Source: a virus | Virus record (IMG/VR): IMGVR_UViG_3300017754_001832 | Reading direction: 5' to 3' (one strand) | DNA: 64,000 bases | Shown: positions 1 through 63,038 of the stretch, piece by piece | How positions within the stretch are numbered: position 1 is the stretch's first letter | Layout: each line of letters opens with the position of its first letter | Notes under the pieces: model-generated | The model's input: only the letters and a program-made list of their open reading frames with translations | Databases searched by the model: none | Told to the model about the DNA's origin: nothing | Position numbers and translations under genes: made by a program

Positions 1-183
1 ACCCCCGGCACGCCACGCCTGAAGACGGGGCCCAGGGCGACCGGGCTGCCGGGCCGCCGGCCGCCCCCACGTCTGCACCCCTGCCCCACAACTCAGACGC
101 ACATAGCTTGTTAGTTGAGTGATACCCTGCACCCCACCCACCCCCACCCCCTGCACCCCCACCCCCTGCACCCACCCCACCCA

Positions 184-232
184 CCCCCTGTAGGGGATAG
201 CCTGCACCCACCCCCTGTAGGGGATAGCCTGC
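184..232 (+). repeat. Tandem direct repeat, 2 x 22 bp CCCCCTGTAGGGGATAGCCTGC with a 27-bp period
   Basis: Identical copies at 184-205 and 211-232. Each contains the short inverted repeat CCCCT-GT-AGGGG. Confidence 0.85.
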
Positions 233-252
233 CCCACCCTGCCCCCCATCAA

Positions 253-269
253 CCCCCCCCCCCCCCCCC
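253..269 (+). repeat. Homopolymer C17 tract
   Basis: 17 consecutive C counted across 253-269. Confidence 0.9.
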
Positions 270-952
270 ACCCCCTGCACCCCCACCCCCTGCACCCCGA
301 TCCGGACGGCGCCGCCCCTCCCGTTGATCTCCGCCAAGGGCCTGCCCCATGGCGCCGCGTTCGCGCCATTCTGGCGACGTTCGCAATTGCCTGGCTTTTG
401 TTAACTGCCCCTTCATGGGGCTATGCCTGCACCCACCCACTGCACCCACCCCACCCATGGCGGGCCTGCACCCTGACTGCAGTCAGCACGTCACCCCATG
501 GGGGCACGCTCTACAGGGGGCAGGGTGCAGGGGCAGGCCGCCGCTCTGGCGTGGCGTGGATCAACCCCGCCCCATGGCATGGCCCTTGCTCCCTTCTCCC
601 TGTCTGCACCCACTGCCTGACTCGTGGTTCCCCACCACACTAGAGATAGGCAGGGACAAGCAGTCACCCCCGCAAGGCCCGCCCCTCACTAGGGCGGGCC
701 TTGTTCGTTGTGGCCTGCCCCTGCCCCACGTGGCCCGCTCTGGCGCGGCCTGCCCCTGCACCCCCGCCACGGGGCAGGCCCGATGCACGCTTGCCCTAAC
801 GCCGCGTTTCGCCGGGCTCGCCACTTTACCCGGCGGGCCTGGCTTTTCGTTAAGTGTAGAAAAGTGGCCGCAACTCAAAAGTTTCTTGTCTTGTTTACTT
901 GATCTTAAGGGGGGCTCGCGTAGTCTCTTCTTATCAGCAACGGAGTCGCCCG

Positions 953-8850: not shown

Positions 8851-9275
8851 ACACCCCGATCCTGCCCACCAAGCGTCAACTCGACGAGCGCGACTTCTTC
8901 ATGCGCCGCCACGAGAACAACATCGAACACGCCTCGCCGGCTCTGCTCTCCACCATCGACCAGAACATGCCGCCGCCGGTCATCGTGAACTCCATCAAGA
9001 CGATGGACAACCTCATGGTGGGCCTCGGCCCTCGCATGATGCTGATGATGATGGCGGACACCTGCATGGGCCTCATCACCAACTCGCCGCCGGTAGATAA
9101 GCGGGCGATGGAGATCGAACTCGGCTCGTGGAACCGCGCGCTCTACATGCTGGCGAACCACCCGACGAAGTATCTGGAGATGGCGCAGGAGTTCGAGTTG
9201 CTGCGCGCCGTGAAGATGCGCGACGAGGTCGAGCCCGGCGACGTGGTTTCGGAAAAACCGAAAACGGATTCCTGA
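8847..9275 (+). CDS. Hypothetical protein (142 aa)
   Basis: ATGA overlap with the upstream gene (MNTPILPTKRQL...). Confidence 0.6.
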   Translation: MNTPILPTKRQLDERDFFMRRHENNIEHASPALLSTIDQNMPPPVIVNSIKTMDNLMVGLGPRMMLMMMADTCMGLITNSPPVDKRAMEIELGSWNRALYMLANHPTKYLEMAQEFELLRAVKMRDEVEPGDVVSEKPKTDS

Positions 9276-9318
9276 AAACGAATCTCTGAAAACGAATCTG
9301 ATTTTATGAATCTGATTC
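9268..9318 (+). repeat. Tandem CTGAAAACGAATCT x2 with five GANTC sites in an AT-rich spacer
   Basis: Repeat copies at 9272-9285 and 9286-9299. GANTC sites start at 9268, 9280, 9294, 9308 and 9314. Confidence 0.75.
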
Positions 9319-9359: not shown

Positions 9360-10148
9360 TTGGGTTATCTGTTTGACCGAGCGATCCGGATCAGCCACGA
9401 CACGGGCAAGCAGTGCCCGGTCGCCGAGGGACGTGCCGTCTACGTGATGGAGAACGCCGCTCGGGAAGCCGCCGCCCACATCTTCGCCGGCATGGCGTCC
9501 GAACAGTTGATCCGCTTCCTGTTCCTCCCGTTCCCCGAACTCTGCATGGAGTGGCGCCACGAGGACGAGCAGGTCTGCGTGCTGATCGAAGAGTCGAAGG
9601 CCACCAACTCGAAGACGGGCGAGGAGTTCGACTCGGTCACGGTCGCGATCCTCGTCGAGAACGAGGCAGGCCGTCAGTGGCAGGCGTCGATGTATTACGT
9701 CCGCGCGGTGAACAGCAACGGCAACATCCCGTGGGATGAATCGCCCGCAGCGAAAGCGATCCCCGAGAACAAGCGGATGTCGAGCGACGCGCACAAGAAC
9801 CTGATGGCAGAGATCATCGTCCAGGTCGCGCTCCTCAACGCGCCAAACCTCCGCACCGCCGAGGCGCGCGACATGAGCAAGCTCAACAAGGCTCGCGCGA
9901 AGAAGGGACAGCCCTTGCTGTGCGGCCACACCGTGATCCGCCCGGCCGCAGAGACCCGTGAGTGGCTGCGCGCAAACGCCGACGTGGACCGCAAGCCCGC
10001 CATGCAGCATTGGGTCAAAGGCCACCTCCACACCTACTGGACAGGCCCCAAGACCGAACAGCAGAAGCCCGTCATCAAGCTCCTGGCTCCGCACAAGCGC
10101 GGCAACCCGGAGCGGGGTGAGAAACCCCAAAGGTACATCGTCACATGA
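9360..10148 (+). CDS. Hypothetical protein (262 aa), TTG start
   Basis: ORF track. GAGGGG lies upstream. Composition is protein-like, unlike the antisense ORF 9318..10130. Confidence 0.65.
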   Translation: MGYLFDRAIRISHDTGKQCPVAEGRAVYVMENAAREAAAHIFAGMASEQLIRFLFLPFPELCMEWRHEDEQVCVLIEESKATNSKTGEEFDSVTVAILVENEAGRQWQASMYYVRAVNSNGNIPWDESPAAKAIPENKRMSSDAHKNLMAEIIVQVALLNAPNLRTAEARDMSKLNKARAKKGQPLLCGHTVIRPAAETREWLRANADVDRKPAMQHWVKGHLHTYWTGPKTEQQKPVIKLLAPHKRGNPERGEKPQRYIVT

Positions 10149-18436: not shown

Positions 18437-18914
18437 GCTCGGAAACAAGGGCCACGAGGACATGCTCGGTACGCCGAAGGAACGGCTCACCTCGAAGGAC
18501 ACGAACCCGAAGGACGCCGTCGGCGTGGCGAAGGTTTCGGAGTCCTGCATCCCGCAAGGGGTCATCGGCGAACTCGCCATCGCCATGCAGGAGGGCGCTC
18601 GCAAGTACGGGCGCCACAACTACCGGATCGCCGGGGTTCGCGCCTCGGTCTACTTCGATGCTCTCATGCGCCACAGCAAGGCGTGGTGGGAGGGCGAGGA
18701 CAACGATCCGGAGTCGGGCGCGAGCCACATCACCAAGGCCATCGCGACCCTCGTGGTCCTCCGCGATGCCATGATGAACGGCAAGATGACCGACGACCGC
18801 CCGCCGCCGATGACCGACCCCGATTGGCAGCGAAAACTCAACGAACTTGCGAAAGGGCTCATCGAGAAGTATCCAGATGCCAAGCCCGCCTACACTCGCG
18901 AACCCCAGGAGTAG
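18426..18914 (+). CDS. Putative dATP/dGTP diphosphohydrolase-like protein (DUF5664-like), 162 aa
   Basis: EGARKYGRHNYR ... HITKAIATLVVLRD resembles that N-terminal domain family. This comes from memory of the family only. Confidence 0.45.
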   Translation: MTGKLGNKGHEDMLGTPKERLTSKDTNPKDAVGVAKVSESCIPQGVIGELAIAMQEGARKYGRHNYRIAGVRASVYFDALMRHSKAWWEGEDNDPESGASHITKAIATLVVLRDAMMNGKMTDDRPPPMTDPDWQRKLNELAKGLIEKYPDAKPAYTREPQE

Positions 18915-18919
18915 CCGTC

Positions 18920-20794
18920 ATGGCCGTCAAGCCCAAGTCACCGCAGATCACCAAAGCCCAACTCCAGAAGTGGGTGAACCTCGTAAACCGGCTTGACGGC
19001 AACGTCTCACGCGCGGCGGAAGAAGCAGGCATCTCCGCCCGCCAACTCAAGCGCCACCTCGACACCTGCAAGAAACGCGGCGTCGTTCCGCCGAAGCCCT
19101 TCAACCCCCAGAACGCCATCCGATCAACCGACATCGCCGACGACGAACTGCACGATGTCTGGAACGTCTACGAGCGATACGGATACGACGCACAAGCGAC
19201 CGCCGAAGCTCTCGGCATCCACGAGTCCTCCCTCCGCAACCGCATCAAGAAAGCGCAGCACAAGTTCGGCTACGTGAAGAAGTCCCTCGGGGTGACTCAC
19301 GCGCAGGCCGCCGCGCCGCTGCCGCTCCCCGACGCCGGCAAGATCAACTACTTCATGCTGACGACGGCGCAGAACAACACCAAGGTCCACGACGCAACGT
19401 GGGCTTCGGGCATCAACCTCGCGAAGCACTACGACGCCGAGATCAAGGTCTCGACCTTCACCTACATCGGCAACGAGGAAGGCTCGCAGAAGCGCGGGCA
19501 CGAGAAGTCGGGCGAGGCCATGGGCCGCAAGGTCGAGGACCGCTGGTATGATCCGCGCGTCGTCCCGTACATCTCCGACGAGTTCCAACAGCTTGCGCCG
19601 GGTCTCGTGTGGTGCGGCCACTCCAACACACTGCCGACCGCGTCCGACCCGCTCCGTGGCACGCAGTCTCTCAATGGCCGTGCGTCTGGTGTCTGGCCCC
19701 ACACGCGGATCGAGATGCGCCCGGTCGCCACGGCTGCCGGTGAAGCCACCAAGTTCAACTTCACGACCGGCGCCGTCACGCTGCGCAACTACATCCAGAA
19801 GCGGGCCGGCATCGCGGCGGAGTTCTACCACTGCTTCGGCTTCCTGCTCGTCGCCGTCGACTCGAACGGCAATTGGTGGTGCCGCCAACTCAACGCCGAT
19901 AGCGAAGGCAACATCTACGACCTCGACCTGCTCGCGACTCCCGAAGGCGTGTTCGAGTGGATCGACGAGAAGAAGGGCGGCCTCGAAGGTCTGGTCTATG
20001 GCGACATCCACCGCTCGAAGATCGACGAGACGATCCGCGATGCGACGTGGGGCCCCGGCGGCCTCGTGGACTTCCTCAAGCCCAAGGTGCAGGTCTTCCA
20101 CGACCTCCTCAACTTCAACCCGTCGCACCACTCGCGCAAAGACCCGCACGAGATGTATAAGCAGCGCAAGCGCGCTGAAGACCTGGTGTACGGCGAGATC
20201 GAGGGCGACGGCTCGTTCCTCGATTGGACGCACCGCCCGTGGTCGCGCGAAGTCGTGGTCGACTCCAACCACCACCGTCACCTCGACCGCTTCCTGAAGG
20301 AAGTCGATTGGCGTGACGACCTCAACAATGCGCGCGTCATCCTCGACATGAACCTCGCGTGGCTCGACGCCATCGACAAGGGCGAGGAAGAGGACTTCCT
20401 TGCCTACGAGTGGCAGATCAGGAAGATGGGCTACGGCAAGCACGCCCACTTCATGAACCTCACCAGCGAGAAGCCCGAGAAGCTGAGCCTCGTGCTCTGC
20501 AAGGGCAACGGCGGGGGTATCGAGGTCGGCGCGCACCACGGGGATCGCGGGCCGAACGGCGCACGCGGCACGCCGCAGAACCTATCGAAGATGGGCCGCA
20601 AGAATGTCATCGGCGACAAGCACTCGCCGGGCATCTGGGGTGGCACCTACGTTGCAGGCATGACCGGCAAGCCGCGTCAGGGCTACAACATCGGGCCGGG
20701 CTCGTGGGCTGCCGCGCACGTGCCGATTTACCCGAACGGAAAGCGGCAAGTCCTGTTGTTCTGGAAAGGCATGCCGCACGAACCGCGCGGTTAG
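18920..20794 (+). CDS. Large hypothetical protein (624 aa) with two N-terminal HTH-like segments and His-rich phosphoesterase-like motifs
   Basis: AGGAG RBS. NVSRAAEEAGISARQLKRHL and AEALGIHESSLRNRIKKA. YGDIH, FHDLLN and DSNHHRH appear in the order of calcineurin-like motifs. Confidence 0.7.
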   Translation: MAVKPKSPQITKAQLQKWVNLVNRLDGNVSRAAEEAGISARQLKRHLDTCKKRGVVPPKPFNPQNAIRSTDIADDELHDVWNVYERYGYDAQATAEALGIHESSLRNRIKKAQHKFGYVKKSLGVTHAQAAAPLPLPDAGKINYFMLTTAQNNTKVHDATWASGINLAKHYDAEIKVSTFTYIGNEEGSQKRGHEKSGEAMGRKVEDRWYDPRVVPYISDEFQQLAPGLVWCGHSNTLPTASDPLRGTQSLNGRASGVWPHTRIEMRPVATAAGEATKFNFTTGAVTLRNYIQKRAGIAAEFYHCFGFLLVAVDSNGNWWCRQLNADSEGNIYDLDLLATPEGVFEWIDEKKGGLEGLVYGDIHRSKIDETIRDATWGPGGLVDFLKPKVQVFHDLLNFNPSHHSRKDPHEMYKQRKRAEDLVYGEIEGDGSFLDWTHRPWSREVVVDSNHHRHLDRFLKEVDWRDDLNNARVILDMNLAWLDAIDKGEEEDFLAYEWQIRKMGYGKHAHFMNLTSEKPEKLSLVLCKGNGGGIEVGAHHGDRGPNGARGTPQNLSKMGRKNVIGDKHSPGIWGGTYVAGMTGKPRQGYNIGPGSWAAAHVPIYPNGKRQVLLFWKGMPHEPRG

Positions 20795-51645: not shown

Positions 51646-53721
51646 TCAAGCCATGGATTCTCCCAAGGCGGAGAGCTTCTTACGGGGCTTTGCCTTGCTC
51701 ACAAAGCCACCTGCGGCGGGGCCCGAGATCACGAGATCGTTGTGGTCCCATTCCTTGGCCCAACCCGGCGGTGTGTCCCAATCCATCGTCTCGCCACGGA
51801 TGCGCGCGTCGATCTGGAGAGACACGACGTAGTAGAGCAAGTCCCACGCTTCGTTGCGGCGACCCTTGCCGGTCGTCTCCCACCCTTTCGGTGTGCGGAC
51901 CTCGGCGGTCAACTGCGTGTAGAGCCAATCCTCGGCCCAACGAGGGAAGTGAACCATGCCGCCGCCGGGCTCGGTCCTGCCGAGCATCGCGTAGGCCGTG
52001 TCCTTCTGGAGGTTCGAGTTGATGAAGCCCACAGGGATGTCGCCGCGTGCGCCGGCCTTGCGATCCTTGCGCTGCGAATCCGGGTGATGGATTTTGTATC
52101 GCTGCGCAGTCTTCGACGGCTCGCCCTTCAGCAGTTGGAACCGTTTGTGGTGGCCGCCCGGGTGAGTGTCGCGGAGCCAGCGCCAGAAGTTGTAGGCGTT
52201 CGTCGTGACGCCTTCCTTACCGCCCGAGTCGCAGCCCACGAGCTTGATCTGCATGTGGCGGCCCGAACCATCGGCGAGCGGGTACGTGCGCTCGATCACC
52301 TGATCGACGAGCAGGTGCCAATCTTCAGGATACGCGGCGGGGTCGATGGGCTCGGGGTCGCCGTCCACGTCGAGTCGGAGCGACTTGCGAATCTTGAACA
52401 TGTCCACGTGCCAGACATCGCCACCAACGCCGAAGCCGTAGACATGCACGACGAAGGTCGAGCGCATGCCGGCCTGCACGTCGATGGTCGCCATCATGTA
52501 GCGGACACCGTGAGGCACGACCGGCTCGCGTTGTGAGCCACCCCAATCCTCGGCGCGTGCCTTCAGTTCCTCGGGCAGGCGCTCGGACATCAGCGCCTTC
52601 GGGATGTACGCCTCGCCCTGGTCCACGTTGACGGTGGACTTCAGTGATTGCTCGGAGCCGGTCTTCTCGTATTCCTCGCTCGCCTTCAGGAAGTTGAAGA
52701 CGAGGGTCTGCCATGTCGCGAACGCGGCGGCCGGGCCCTTGAGCCAGAAGCTCGCGATCTCGCTTCGCACCGGAGTCCCCGTGATGCGACCGTCCTGCTG
52801 CCAGACCTGCCCGTCGCGAATCCATTTGCCGCCGAGGTTGAGACGGTGCTTCTGCGAGTGCTGGATGTGCGTCAGGCAGTGCGGGCACTCCATGGTGGCG
52901 CGCTCGGACTTGAACACGTCGTCGCCTTCCTCGGGCCACTGAAGCAGGCTGAAGGACGGCTCGAACTTGCCACGGCAATCAGGGCACTCCCAGAACCAGC
53001 GGCGCCGGTCGCCACGGTTGAACAGCGAGAGGATGCCCTTGGTCGGCGGAGCTTCGTGCTTGCTGCTGGCGATCCACTTCGGGTTGTCCACCGTGAAGCC
53101 CGGCGAGGACTCCGCCACGGTCATGCCGAAGCGGCGGAACGTCGTCGCGCGTTTGCGTGCCAGATCGAAGGGCGAGCCTTCGCCGTCGATGTCCTCGGGC
53201 ATGCGGTCGTAGTCAGTGAGCCACAGGCGCGGGATCGGCTTACCCGAGAGTTCGGAGATCGCAGGGTGGCCGAGGGTGAGCAGCATCCCACTGCGGAACT
53301 GCGTGTCGAACACGTTCTCGTCGAGCGTCCTCTCGCGAAGCTGCGGCACGTCGCGATAGAGACGCGAGAGACGACGGAGCGAGAAGTCGCGGGCTGCCGT
53401 GTTCGTCGGGTTGATGATGAACATGTCTGCCGGATCGCAGATCGCGGAGTACGTGACCCAACTCAGGAATGGGTCGGTCTTACTGGCCTGCGCCGGGCCG
53501 ACAAACACTGCACCCGTGTATTCGTGGGAAGTCAGCGTGTCCTGAAACTCGACGCTGTAGGGCGCGATGCTGCGGATGTACGGGCCGACGTAGTTGCCGG
53601 GGTTGTCCATCCAGCGATACTTCTCGGCGGCCTCGGTGACAGACAGGCGCTCGGGCGGGCGCACGGTCTCAGCCGCAGAAGCGACCATGTCTTCGAGACA
53701 GAGGAACTTAGGCCCCTTCAT
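51646..53721 (-). CDS. terL: Terminase large subunit, lambda gpA family (691 aa)
   Basis: Walker A-like VFVGPAQASKTD. Size and synteny fit. Zinc-finger-like CPDCRGKF...CPHC. Confidence 0.9.
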   Translation of the reverse strand: MKGPKFLCLEDMVASAAETVRPPERLSVTEAAEKYRWMDNPGNYVGPYIRSIAPYSVEFQDTLTSHEYTGAVFVGPAQASKTDPFLSWVTYSAICDPADMFIINPTNTAARDFSLRRLSRLYRDVPQLRERTLDENVFDTQFRSGMLLTLGHPAISELSGKPIPRLWLTDYDRMPEDIDGEGSPFDLARKRATTFRRFGMTVAESSPGFTVDNPKWIASSKHEAPPTKGILSLFNRGDRRRWFWECPDCRGKFEPSFSLLQWPEEGDDVFKSERATMECPHCLTHIQHSQKHRLNLGGKWIRDGQVWQQDGRITGTPVRSEIASFWLKGPAAAFATWQTLVFNFLKASEEYEKTGSEQSLKSTVNVDQGEAYIPKALMSERLPEELKARAEDWGGSQREPVVPHGVRYMMATIDVQAGMRSTFVVHVYGFGVGGDVWHVDMFKIRKSLRLDVDGDPEPIDPAAYPEDWHLLVDQVIERTYPLADGSGRHMQIKLVGCDSGGKEGVTTNAYNFWRWLRDTHPGGHHKRFQLLKGEPSKTAQRYKIHHPDSQRKDRKAGARGDIPVGFINSNLQKDTAYAMLGRTEPGGGMVHFPRWAEDWLYTQLTAEVRTPKGWETTGKGRRNEAWDLLYYVVSLQIDARIRGETMDWDTPPGWAKEWDHNDLVISGPAAGGFVSKAKPRKKLSALGESMA

Positions 53722-57367: not shown

Positions 57368-58077
57368 TGCTTGTTCGCTCGCTGCGCTTCGATCTCTGCC
57401 GCCGCGTGGACCCACAGGTCTGCGAAGCGAACGCTCTTGTGGTTGTAGAACCACGGGCCACCGTTGGTGTAGTGGATGCCGGCCGGCGGCTGCGCGCTCT
57501 CCCACTCATACTCGCCTTCGAGCCAGTTCCACGTCTGCGGAACGCCGAGGATTTGATGTTCCGCGATCCAGTTGAAGCGGTGCAGGTCGGCGGCCTTGGC
57601 GCTGTTCACATACTCCGGTGTCAGTTGCCGACACTGCGGGTTGTTGAACAGCATCAGCGACGACCAATTCTTGCGGGGGTACGCGACCTGGGGCTGCCCA
57701 TCCATCTTGAAGGCGGCCTTGGGCGTGTAGTCGTGCTTCACGAGGGCGACGCCGTACTGCACCGGCTGCACCTTGTCCTGCTCGCCACGGACGAAGTCGA
57801 GGAGGCTCTTGATGTCGCGGGTGAAGAGGAAGTCGCAATCCACGAAGAGGGCCGTGCCCTTGTAGCCGCACAGGTAGGGCACGAGGAAGCGGGTGTGGGC
57901 GAACTCGGTCGAGGCGGGCTCGTCTGCCGGGCGGGTGTAGATACCCCGCTCCCGCAGCTTGTCCTGCTTCAGGCCGACGATGGCGAGCGGGATGGATGTG
58001 TGGGCGCGGAGCGAGGCAGCGCAGACCTCGAACGCGGCGTGTTCTCTGGCGTCGTAGCCGATGAAGACGTGTAGCAT
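57364..58077 (-). CDS. GT8-like glycosyltransferase (237 aa)
   Basis: Internal ATG (MLHVFIGYDARE...). DxD ALFVDCDFLF. KNWSSLMLFN. Confidence 0.6.
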   Translation of the reverse strand: MLHVFIGYDAREHAAFEVCAASLRAHTSIPLAIVGLKQDKLRERGIYTRPADEPASTEFAHTRFLVPYLCGYKGTALFVDCDFLFTRDIKSLLDFVRGEQDKVQPVQYGVALVKHDYTPKAAFKMDGQPQVAYPRKNWSSLMLFNNPQCRQLTPEYVNSAKAADLHRFNWIAEHQILGVPQTWNWLEGEYEWESAQPPAGIHYTNGGPWFYNHKSVRFADLWVHAAAEIEAQRANKQ

Positions 58078-62171: not shown

Positions 62172-63038
62172 TCAGAAGGGGATGTCATCGTCATCCCGAT
62201 TGCGGCTGCGGCGCGAACGCGGGGCGTCCTCGTCGTCATCGCGGTTGCGGCGCGAACGAGGAGCTTCCTCCTCGGCGTCGCGGTTACGGCGCGAACGAGG
62301 AGCTTCCTCCTCGGCGTCGAAGCGTTCGCGGCGACCGCGCGGAGCGTCGTCCTCATCGCGGTCGCGGTTGCGGCCACGCGGGGCGTCATCTTCGTCACGG
62401 CCACGGCGCGAGCGCGGGGCGTCGTCTTCATCACGATCACGGCCACGACCACGCATCGGGACATGGCTGCCCTCGTCGTCGTCTTCGTGTGCCTTGAACT
62501 TGCTGAGATCGGCGGCGCCTTTGCCGAACGCTTCGCCCTTGCGGAAATACTGGACGATCTCCAGCGAGGCGTTCACCTGGTCGTTCCACTCGTCGTAGGC
62601 GTAGATGCGAACGAGAGCGTTGACGTAGCACCCGCCGTAGGGCTTTCCGTCCTTCTCTTCCGCACGAGTCATGTCGGCGAGGAAGACCTGCGGCGCACTC
62701 TTGGCCGGCGCGGCGGCTTTCAGCAGCATGCAGCCCTGAAGCTCGTCCTTGTCGGTGTCATCACCATCCACGAGGCAGAGGTTCTGCTCCTGGATTTTCG
62801 GGGGGTTCTTGCCCCACTTGTCGGCGATCACGTCGTCGATTGCGTCCTCGATCTCCTCGATCAGCTTCTTGTGCTTCTTCTTGTCGAGGATGAAGCCGCA
62901 GGTGTAGCGCGGCTTGGAGTTCGGGTCGGCCTTGCCCTTCCGCTGGAAGGTGGTCGGCTCGAACAGGTGGGGGTGGGAGCAGCGAACGTCTTCGAGATAG
63001 ACTTCGACGTTCAAGTTTTTCTGACCTTTGGCGGCCAT
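62172..63038 (-). CDS. DUF2815-type ssDNA-binding protein with a repeat linker and DDDIPF tip (288 aa)
   Basis: N-terminus VYLEDVRCSHPHLFEPTTF...KPRYTCGFILDKKK fits DUF2815. The C-terminus ends DDDDIPF. Confidence 0.75.
   Translation of the reverse strand: MAAKGQKNLNVEVYLEDVRCSHPHLFEPTTFQRKGKADPNSKPRYTCGFILDKKKHKKLIEEIEDAIDDVIADKWGKNPPKIQEQNLCLVDGDDTDKDELQGCMLLKAAAPAKSAPQVFLADMTRAEEKDGKPYGGCYVNALVRIYAYDEWNDQVNASLEIVQYFRKGEAFGKGAADLSKFKAHEDDDEGSHVPMRGRGRDRDEDDAPRSRRGRDEDDAPRGRNRDRDEDDAPRGRRERFDAEEEAPRSRRNRDAEEEAPRSRRNRDDDEDAPRSRRSRNRDDDDIPF
62185..62460 (-). repeat. In-frame tandem repeats encoding about 6 copies of an acidic-APR(S/G)RR unit in the SSB tail
   Basis: A 31-nt string is exactly repeated at 62250-62280 and 62289-62319 (39-bp period). 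Peptide repeats RDEDDAPRSRRG and DAEEEAPRSRRNR. Confidence 0.85.

Follow-up and report, generated by a model that had tools for sequence, protein, structure and literature searches.

What is the function of the strand-asymmetric field of C-rich short repeats that opens the sequence of IMG/VR virus record IMGVR_UViG_3300017754_001832? A preliminary description of this stretch (64,000 nucleotides of one strand, hereafter the window) had proposed an origin, a packaging site or a terminal region with G-quadruplex (G4) potential. The field itself is readily recognized. The octamer CTGCACCC occurs 17 times in the 64-kb window against 2.4 ± 1.6 expected, a count reached in 0 of 100 shuffles; 12 copies on the + strand and one on the − strand fall within 73-763, exactly the direct and inverted copies first reported. 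With the relaxed motif CTGC[AC]CC, positions 1-960 contain 24 copies (20 on +, 4 on −), the rest of the window has 0.41 per kb, and no comparable second cluster exists elsewhere in it, only a three-copy group near 57579. The spacings between octamers are irregular (8, 46, 24, 15, 36, 27, 10, 36, 15, 52, 63...). From 61 to 300 there are 138 C and 33 G (C/G = 4.2), which bears out the asymmetry between strands, and the 17-nt homopolymer, also confirmed, is the sole run of at least 8 in 64 kb; the field is thus as singular within the window as initially stated. The tandem described as 2 x 22 bp, each copy with a short palindrome, is real, as is the palindrome (a small inverted repeat in each copy), but its unit is 27 bp (CACCCACCCCCTGTAGGGGATAGCCTG), present in 2.3 exact copies. 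Other tandems of the window include a 39-bp unit repeated 5.7 times at 62202-62423, close to the SSB gene (62172-63038) on the coding side of the − strand, and a 14-bp unit, GAAAACGAATCTCT, repeated 2.9 times at 9260-9299 directly upstream of the gene at 9360.

Open reading frames overlap the field (349-1038 on +, 561-1121 on −), yet they are only mechanical. When aligned with the Logan contig L009, a relative whose neighbouring gene product is 76% identical and whose nucleotide alignment runs from position 524 onward, the window displays indels of 3, 2, 28, 12 and 2 nt, which disrupt any frame. The repeat region is therefore non-coding, in agreement with the lack of credible coding capacity noted at the outset. 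Segments 525-617 and 648-722 are ~98% identical to L009, exceeding the conservation of the adjacent coding DNA, and L009 retains the motifs of the window. These segments lie within or across the edge of a module (table 1) predicted to form three hairpins (z = −4.66), of which the third resembles a terminator; between the two sequences compared, window and L009, the stems are conserved and the apical loop is variable. Judged by conservation and predicted folding, this module may be a non-coding or small RNA, or a structured protein-binding element. An Rfam scan retrieved no family at gathering score, only sub-threshold matches, that to Thr_leader being attributed to the hairpin; a strict T-run scan did not call the terminator-like hairpin. 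The 14-bp palindrome that separates module and main array looks like an operator. Further repeat structure links the two sides of the module: the 19 nt at 523-541 recur in perfect inverted form at 745-763, and the copy arrangement of the promoter-proximal iteron block differs in L009 by a 28-nt indel. The putative early promoter corresponds to TTGCCA-N16-TACTCT in L009; a consensus promoter and terminator scan of the region found nothing and does not support it. A sigma-54 promoter reading of GCCTGGCTTTTGTTAA was rejected by hand because its −12 GC is out of register. Two copies of the element GCCTGGCTTTT(C)GTTAA are present, at 389-405 and 837-854, with a small hairpin (GCCCCTTCATGGGGC) after the first; they may represent duplication of a promoter or terminator cassette.

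Table 1. Elements of positions 1-1114 of the window, with strand and basis of assignment.
Feature	Position	Strand	Basis
Cos-proximal unique GC-rich segment	1..60	+	Positions 1-8 compared with the phage Chi cos junction
Main array, 15 direct copies of the asymmetric octamer CTGC(A/C)CCC in CCCAC-type filler	73..473	+	Motif scan
Exact 27-bp tandem x 2.3, one iteron and CCCCT-GT-AGGGG per copy	178..239	+	Repeat search
C17 homopolymer	253..269	+	Homopolymer scan
Perfect 14-bp palindrome CTGACTGCAGTCAG, between main array and conserved module	473..486	.	Read from sequence
Conserved structured element, three hairpins	505..715	+	L009 alignment, folding
Inverted iteron copies (GGGGGCAGGGTGCAGGGGCAGGCC)	516..541	−	Repeat search
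Terminator-like GC hairpin, 12-13 bp, then TTGTTCGTT; kept in L009	672..704	+	Repeat search, alignment, folding
Promoter-proximal GGCCTGCCCC and CTGCACCC copies, inverted arm 771-780	712..781	+	Repeat search, motif scan
Putative early promoter TTGATC-N16-TAGTCT, then conserved RBS	899..926	+	Conservation in L009, inferred
First small gene of early operon; start and RBS kept in L009	953..1114	+	ORF list, alignment

The window covers ~64 kb of the genome of a novel siphophage of the Casjensviridae (Chi-like), whose full length is ~68.5 kb. PHROG and Pfam scans identified a lambda-type large terminase (TerL, 51646-53721, −), a DUF1441 small terminase (TerS), a protease, the major head protein, a 1661-aa tape measure protein and tail proteins, together with a DNA polymerase, a helicase, an Enc34-type SSB and a DUF2800 exonuclease. 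TerL is 54% identical to that of Rhizobium phage RHph_X2_30, the other top matches listed being also Chi-like phages, and the terminase, structural and replication genes as well as gene order place the phage in Casjensviridae. No close nucleotide relative was found in phage records (INPHARED) or IMG/VR. IMG/VR searches with left-arm proteins, single or aligned, gave no matches, iteron-pattern scans of IMG/VR retrieved mostly coding repeats or unrelated phages, and metagenome and genome scans returned only the already-found relative plus short contigs, or nothing. Genes lie on the + strand from 953 to ~25 kb and on the − strand from 64 kb down to 25.5 kb; in each arm the coding strand is richer in C than in G and in A than in T. 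The cumulative GC skew is V-shaped and lowest at ~25 kb, the meeting point of the two convergent arms. This minimum follows the strand switch and is a codon and orientation effect, no origin signal; an inflection at the repeat field, which the preliminary description had suggested looking for, is not seen. GC skew was thus rejected as an origin marker.

Where does the field lie in the phage genome? Ends with a 12-nt 5' cos have been defined experimentally in Chi (PMC6498227), AH2 (PMC3483164) and the RcD cluster (PMC8601537). A common order is found in the three: Cro, primase, 0.5-0.7 kb of non-coding DNA, cos, 0.5-1 kb of non-coding DNA and the other arm. The start of the window, ACC/CCCGG (1-8; the slash marks the junction), matches the Chi cos junction ...GCGCACC/CCCGGG at 8 of 8 positions. 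In common orientation, the junctions read ...GCG[GCTCTGCGCACC]CCCGGGCC in Chi, ...GCG[GCTCAGCGCCCT]CCCGCC in AH2 and ...GAG[GCTCCGCGCCCC]CACCGG in DSS3-P1; similarly oriented, the window begins ACC/CCCGGCACGCC. In RcGingersnap, a second copy of the 12-nt cos overhang GGGACGCCGACC lies 17 nt upstream of the right end (L016:4700-4726 with L015:1-12). The 64-kb end of the window falls inside the exonuclease gene; with the remainder of this gene, Cro, a primase of 2.5 kb and a further ~0.5 kb, the total comes to ~68.5 kb, in agreement with the 68,473-bp contig on which a 100%-identical protein is recorded. In the closest relative, IMG/VR 3300017780_003691 (L011; exonuclease 86% identical), the contig stops 412 nt past the primase, ~20-30 nt after the A/T-rich motif that is kept across the family beside cos, on its primase side. 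We infer that position 1 lies at, or a few bases inside, cosN. Thus, positions 1-950 are very probably the non-coding DNA on the early-gene side of cos ("right end" in the Chi convention) of a ~68.5-kb Casjensviridae phage. Of the roles first proposed, that of terminal region is the one supported, by synteny and by likeness to defined cos junctions, and the field is part of the phage, not host flank. In phage JS26, the end beside the small early genes was inferred to be injected first, and the genes at that end are expressed within 5 min (10.64898/2025.12.19.695335). Since JS26 has the same gene order, the repeat region would be the leading, early-gene end, upstream of the early operon.

All the members of the family examined display two distinct, phage-specific short-repeat families, one on each side of cos. 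The primase-side and opposite motifs are, respectively, TTCGGACCT and, among others, CGCACGACGAGCACGG in AH2; CCTTGGACC and ATCACAGCGTTACGCA in RHph_X2_30; GTGTTCCA and GGCAGCCC (12 copies) in DSS3-P1; GTTACAAG and TGATATACGCGGCGTGCGT in Chi; CTCAGT or CTGAGCGG and GCTGCCCCGCCATG in RcGingersnap; and GTCCCAG (read by eye) and CCCCCTGCCCC in S-ESS1. The primase side of the 86% relative L011 has CTGTCAC nine times in 412 nt; that of the window phage falls outside the window, the other side carrying CTGC(A/C)CCC. The window array is a fresh example of a known feature, because relatives carry similar cos-end arrays. In Chi, AH2, DSS3-P1 and RHph_X2_30 the cosN-proximal sequence resembles that of the window (GCTCNGCGCNCC/CCCG), yet the motifs (TGATATACGCGGCGTGCGT, TTCGGACCT, GGCAGCCC and ATCACAGCGTTACGCA, for instance) are unrelated in sequence. 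A CTGCCCC/CCATGG-type core, on the other hand, is found at the same place and with the same polarity in the window phage, RcD and S-ESS1. RcD provides the nearest parallel: a genome of ~68 kb, like that of the window phage, with a non-coding end beside a 12-nt 5' cos, opposite the primase, made of short C-rich repeats that include this core and inverted copies near the terminus. Differences are also apparent. The RcD unit is a 62-70-bp composite tandem, not an 8-mer in CCCAC filler; its arrays also occupy internal intergenic sites; it has no C17 and a C/G of only 1.25-1.4; and its array-adjacent genes read toward cos, whereas those of the window read away. Arrays of the CTGCCCC type are also found in several gaps between genes of the accessory arm of RcGingersnap and RcCWillis, at distances of up to ~5 kb from cos. 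Each of these internal arrays precedes a promoter-like cassette that includes a 5'-UTR hairpin. The sense strand of these arrays is invariably the one that reads CTGCCCC, and the window array has the same polarity relative to the early operon. The C-rich array type is not tied to cos. The RcD right end has been described as repeat-rich with no function assigned (PMC8601537), and in the literature searched we found none assigned to the cos-flanking iterons of Chi, AH2, DSS3-P1 or RHph_X2_30.

Could one of the two arrays be the origin? Two RcD phages are informative. The primases of RcGingersnap and RcAqua, of the Prim-Pol/PriCT_2/VapE type, are 98-100% identical per 50-aa window over residues 1-700, and their divergence is confined to the C-terminus, in the last ~100 aa (47% identity in the last 36). 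The HTH proteins gp2 and gp4, encoded beside the primase, are identical. The primase-side flanks (L015:1-700 vs L139:1-700) are ~99% identical for 265 nt beside cos; beyond these, all primase-side iterons switch from CTCAGT in RcGingersnap to CTCACC in RcAqua, with ACTGAG becoming GGTGAG in the inverted copies. Both phages carry an identical right-end array. Since it stays constant while the primase-side iterons switch, the two arrays have different binders. Given this covariation with the primase C-terminus, the primase side is the most likely location of the origin-type iterons of the family; those of the present phage probably lie there too, outside the window. By analogy with P4 alpha, the primase-side iterons would be read by the C-terminus of the primase-helicase, with the caveat that the 3' end of the primase gene is physically linked to them. 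The P4 ori and crr, whose type I iterons are bound by the alpha primase-helicase, resemble the window array in having octamer iterons, direct and inverted, beside a primase-helicase gene; in Casjensviridae, however, the covariation points to the array across cos, and the primase is of a different type.

It might still be argued that the window octamers are iterons for the primase-helicase or another initiator once the genome circularizes, serving as an origin or as a second cis replication region comparable to P4 ori plus crr. Circularization would place the array no more than ~1 kb from the primase gene, a single CTGCACCCC occurs on the primase side of relative L011, and the primase-side motif of AH2 is present on both sides of cos. 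In addition, unrelated IMG/VR phage contigs carry origin-like (A)ACTGCACCCC arrays with 10-11 or 22-bp spacing. These last arrays (L026:180-500, L039:280-400) include inverted copies, with an AT-rich stretch in L026; that the 9-mer is common to the window and to unrelated phages is probably a coincidence. In the window, conversely, the octamers lack helical phasing, neither an AT-rich block inside the array nor a clear unwinding element of that kind is seen, the GC-skew inflection lies at ~25 kb, and in RcD phages it is the opposite array that covaries with the initiator, the right-end array remaining unchanged. An origin on the early side, one of the functions first entertained, is therefore not the best fit, and we regard it as improbable.

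Packaging deserves separate consideration, as the octamers might belong to an extended cos, either as boxes bound by TerS or as cosQ-like termination signals. A precedent exists in SPP1, where TerS binds different short boxes on either side of the cut. The window array begins 73 nt from the presumed cos, and those of DSS3-P1, RcGingersnap and S-ESS1 at 0-15 nt; the array sequences are phage-specific and orientation-biased relative to the end, and a DUF1441 TerS and a lambda-type TerL are both encoded. Like the window array, the R sites of lambda cosB and the pacL and pacR of SPP1 are short repeated protein-binding boxes adjoining the terminase cut, yet in far fewer copies and over a much shorter span. 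Lambda cosB has three R sites, on the first-packaged side, against 24 copies over 700 nt here, at an end presumed to be packaged last (from the JS26 inference and the position of the terminase genes toward the primase end). The primase-side end, nearest the terminase and head genes, is expected to be the first-packaged (cosB) end. In RcCWillis, moreover, the same array type is found as far as 5 kb from cos, and motif sharing among the phages is not paralleled by TerS similarity; a search by sequence found no solved TerS homologue. A terminase site, as had been proposed, is thus not the best fit for C-rich arrays that in RcD are found kilobases from cos, and a packaging role seems unlikely.

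The composition of the field suggests a property of sequence or structure that needs no specific binder: a rut site, G4 or i-motif DNA, or Chi-like octamers. Besides the C/G of 4.2 and the C17, five of the six canonical − strand G4 motifs (G3+N1-7 x 4) of the window lie within 141-456, and the G4Hunter minimum is −3.52 in the field and −1.84 elsewhere. The G4 potential noted in the preliminary description is thus borne out at the sequence level, the extreme skew being peculiar to the window phage: in the arrays of relatives C/G is only 0.9-1.75, so this trait is not conserved. As a rut site, a C-rich, G-poor transcript would load Rho and stop read-through from the primase operon, a role that the inverted copies and strong hairpins do not suit. 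As Chi-like sites, 5'-GGGTGCAG-3' octamers on the strand ending 3' at the terminus would tame AddAB or RecBCD at the first-injected end. The orientation of the G-rich octamer would be the one that Chi requires for an enzyme entering from this end, yet the E. coli Chi octamer GCTGGTGG is absent from the ends of phage Chi. Because the skew is not common to relatives and Chi ends lack the Chi octamer, G4, rut and Chi-like roles do not provide a family-level explanation, and the chance that one of them accounts for the field appears slim. A bolder variant combines primase-side origin iterons with a first-injected, telomere-like G-rich 3' strand (GGGTGCAG, G4-prone, G17) that would protect or mark the leading end during slow injection, acting as a Chi-like decoy for AddAB or RecBCD or through a capping protein. 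If true, cos phages would have an end-protection strategy of a new kind; we consider this variant very improbable.

Several RcD records (OP0092xx) start inside the right-end repeat array, not at cos, and contig L009 breaks inside its array. As several deposited genomes start within the array, the RcD right-end repeats evidently break or misplace assemblies. The C17 could be slippage-prone or mis-assembled, and its length may be unreliable. Taken further, the field might be a largely non-functional, hypervariable satellite tolerated in terminal non-coding DNA and expanded by slippage or recombination, with the C17 and copy numbers possibly in part assembly artefacts. Copy number and arrangement do vary among relatives, and repeats have been linked with sequence and gene diversity (PMC8601537). 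Such a satellite is nonetheless difficult to reconcile with a defined 8-mer that stands amid unique spacers in both orientations, with the presence of such arrays, each with its own motif, in every family member examined, with a core common to distant phages and with the strong constraint on neighbouring unique segments. We therefore regard it as quite unlikely.

Overall, it is plausible that the repeat array is bound by a protein, and we tentatively suggest, with confidence clearly below even, that the octamers are multi-copy sites recognized by a protein specific to the phage, with a role in regulating or insulating transcription of the early arm. Such a sequence-specific DNA-binding protein would control or insulate transcription into and out of this arm, beside the first-injected end; origin-type iterons and cosB-type sites would be found across cos, on the primase side and beyond the window. 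The proposed layout would lead from unique DNA through the main array, the structured module, the promoter-proximal iterons and the putative promoter (~899-926) to the operon that starts at 953 (table 1). The array would evolve by unit duplication and indels, a proposal that would account for the 27-bp tandem and the C-tract. Repeated regulatory elements oriented with transcription are known from the stoperators of mycobacteriophage L5 and from T4-type promoter-early stem-loop cassettes. Like the window array, these are asymmetric repeats or repeated cassettes, transcription-oriented and intergenic, in the accessory or early arm; they are, however, dispersed single sites, whereas the window has one dense cluster upstream of one promoter. 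Some observations fit less well. Most octamer copies are 130-850 nt upstream of the putative promoter, far for a simple operator, and the irregular iteron spacing and the last array of RcGingersnap, which follows the last gene with no promoter downstream, argue against a regulatory array. Among the window proteins tested, none matched a DNA-binding domain except a 703-aa protein at 18683-20794 (+; HTH_8/HTH_30). This protein has an N-terminal Fis/PucR-type HTH, its C-terminal 500 aa matching PHROG 1745 (DNA transfer protein); no other clear candidate for DNA binding was noticed in the left arm. As a whole, identity as the early end of cos combined with a regulatory binding array is the best explanation we can offer, at a confidence a little short of even.

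Our analysis settles how this novel 68.5-kb Chi-like phage is oriented and where its physical end probably lies. The repeat field belongs to a family-wide feature, in which cos has a distinct iteron field on each side; in the literature searched, we found a functional characterization of neither. Since the primase-side iterons switch with the primase C-terminus in RcD phages, a concrete and testable origin assignment is now available for the family. The early-side arrays would be useful targets in phage engineering, where they might serve as safe sites or supply signals for packaging and expression.
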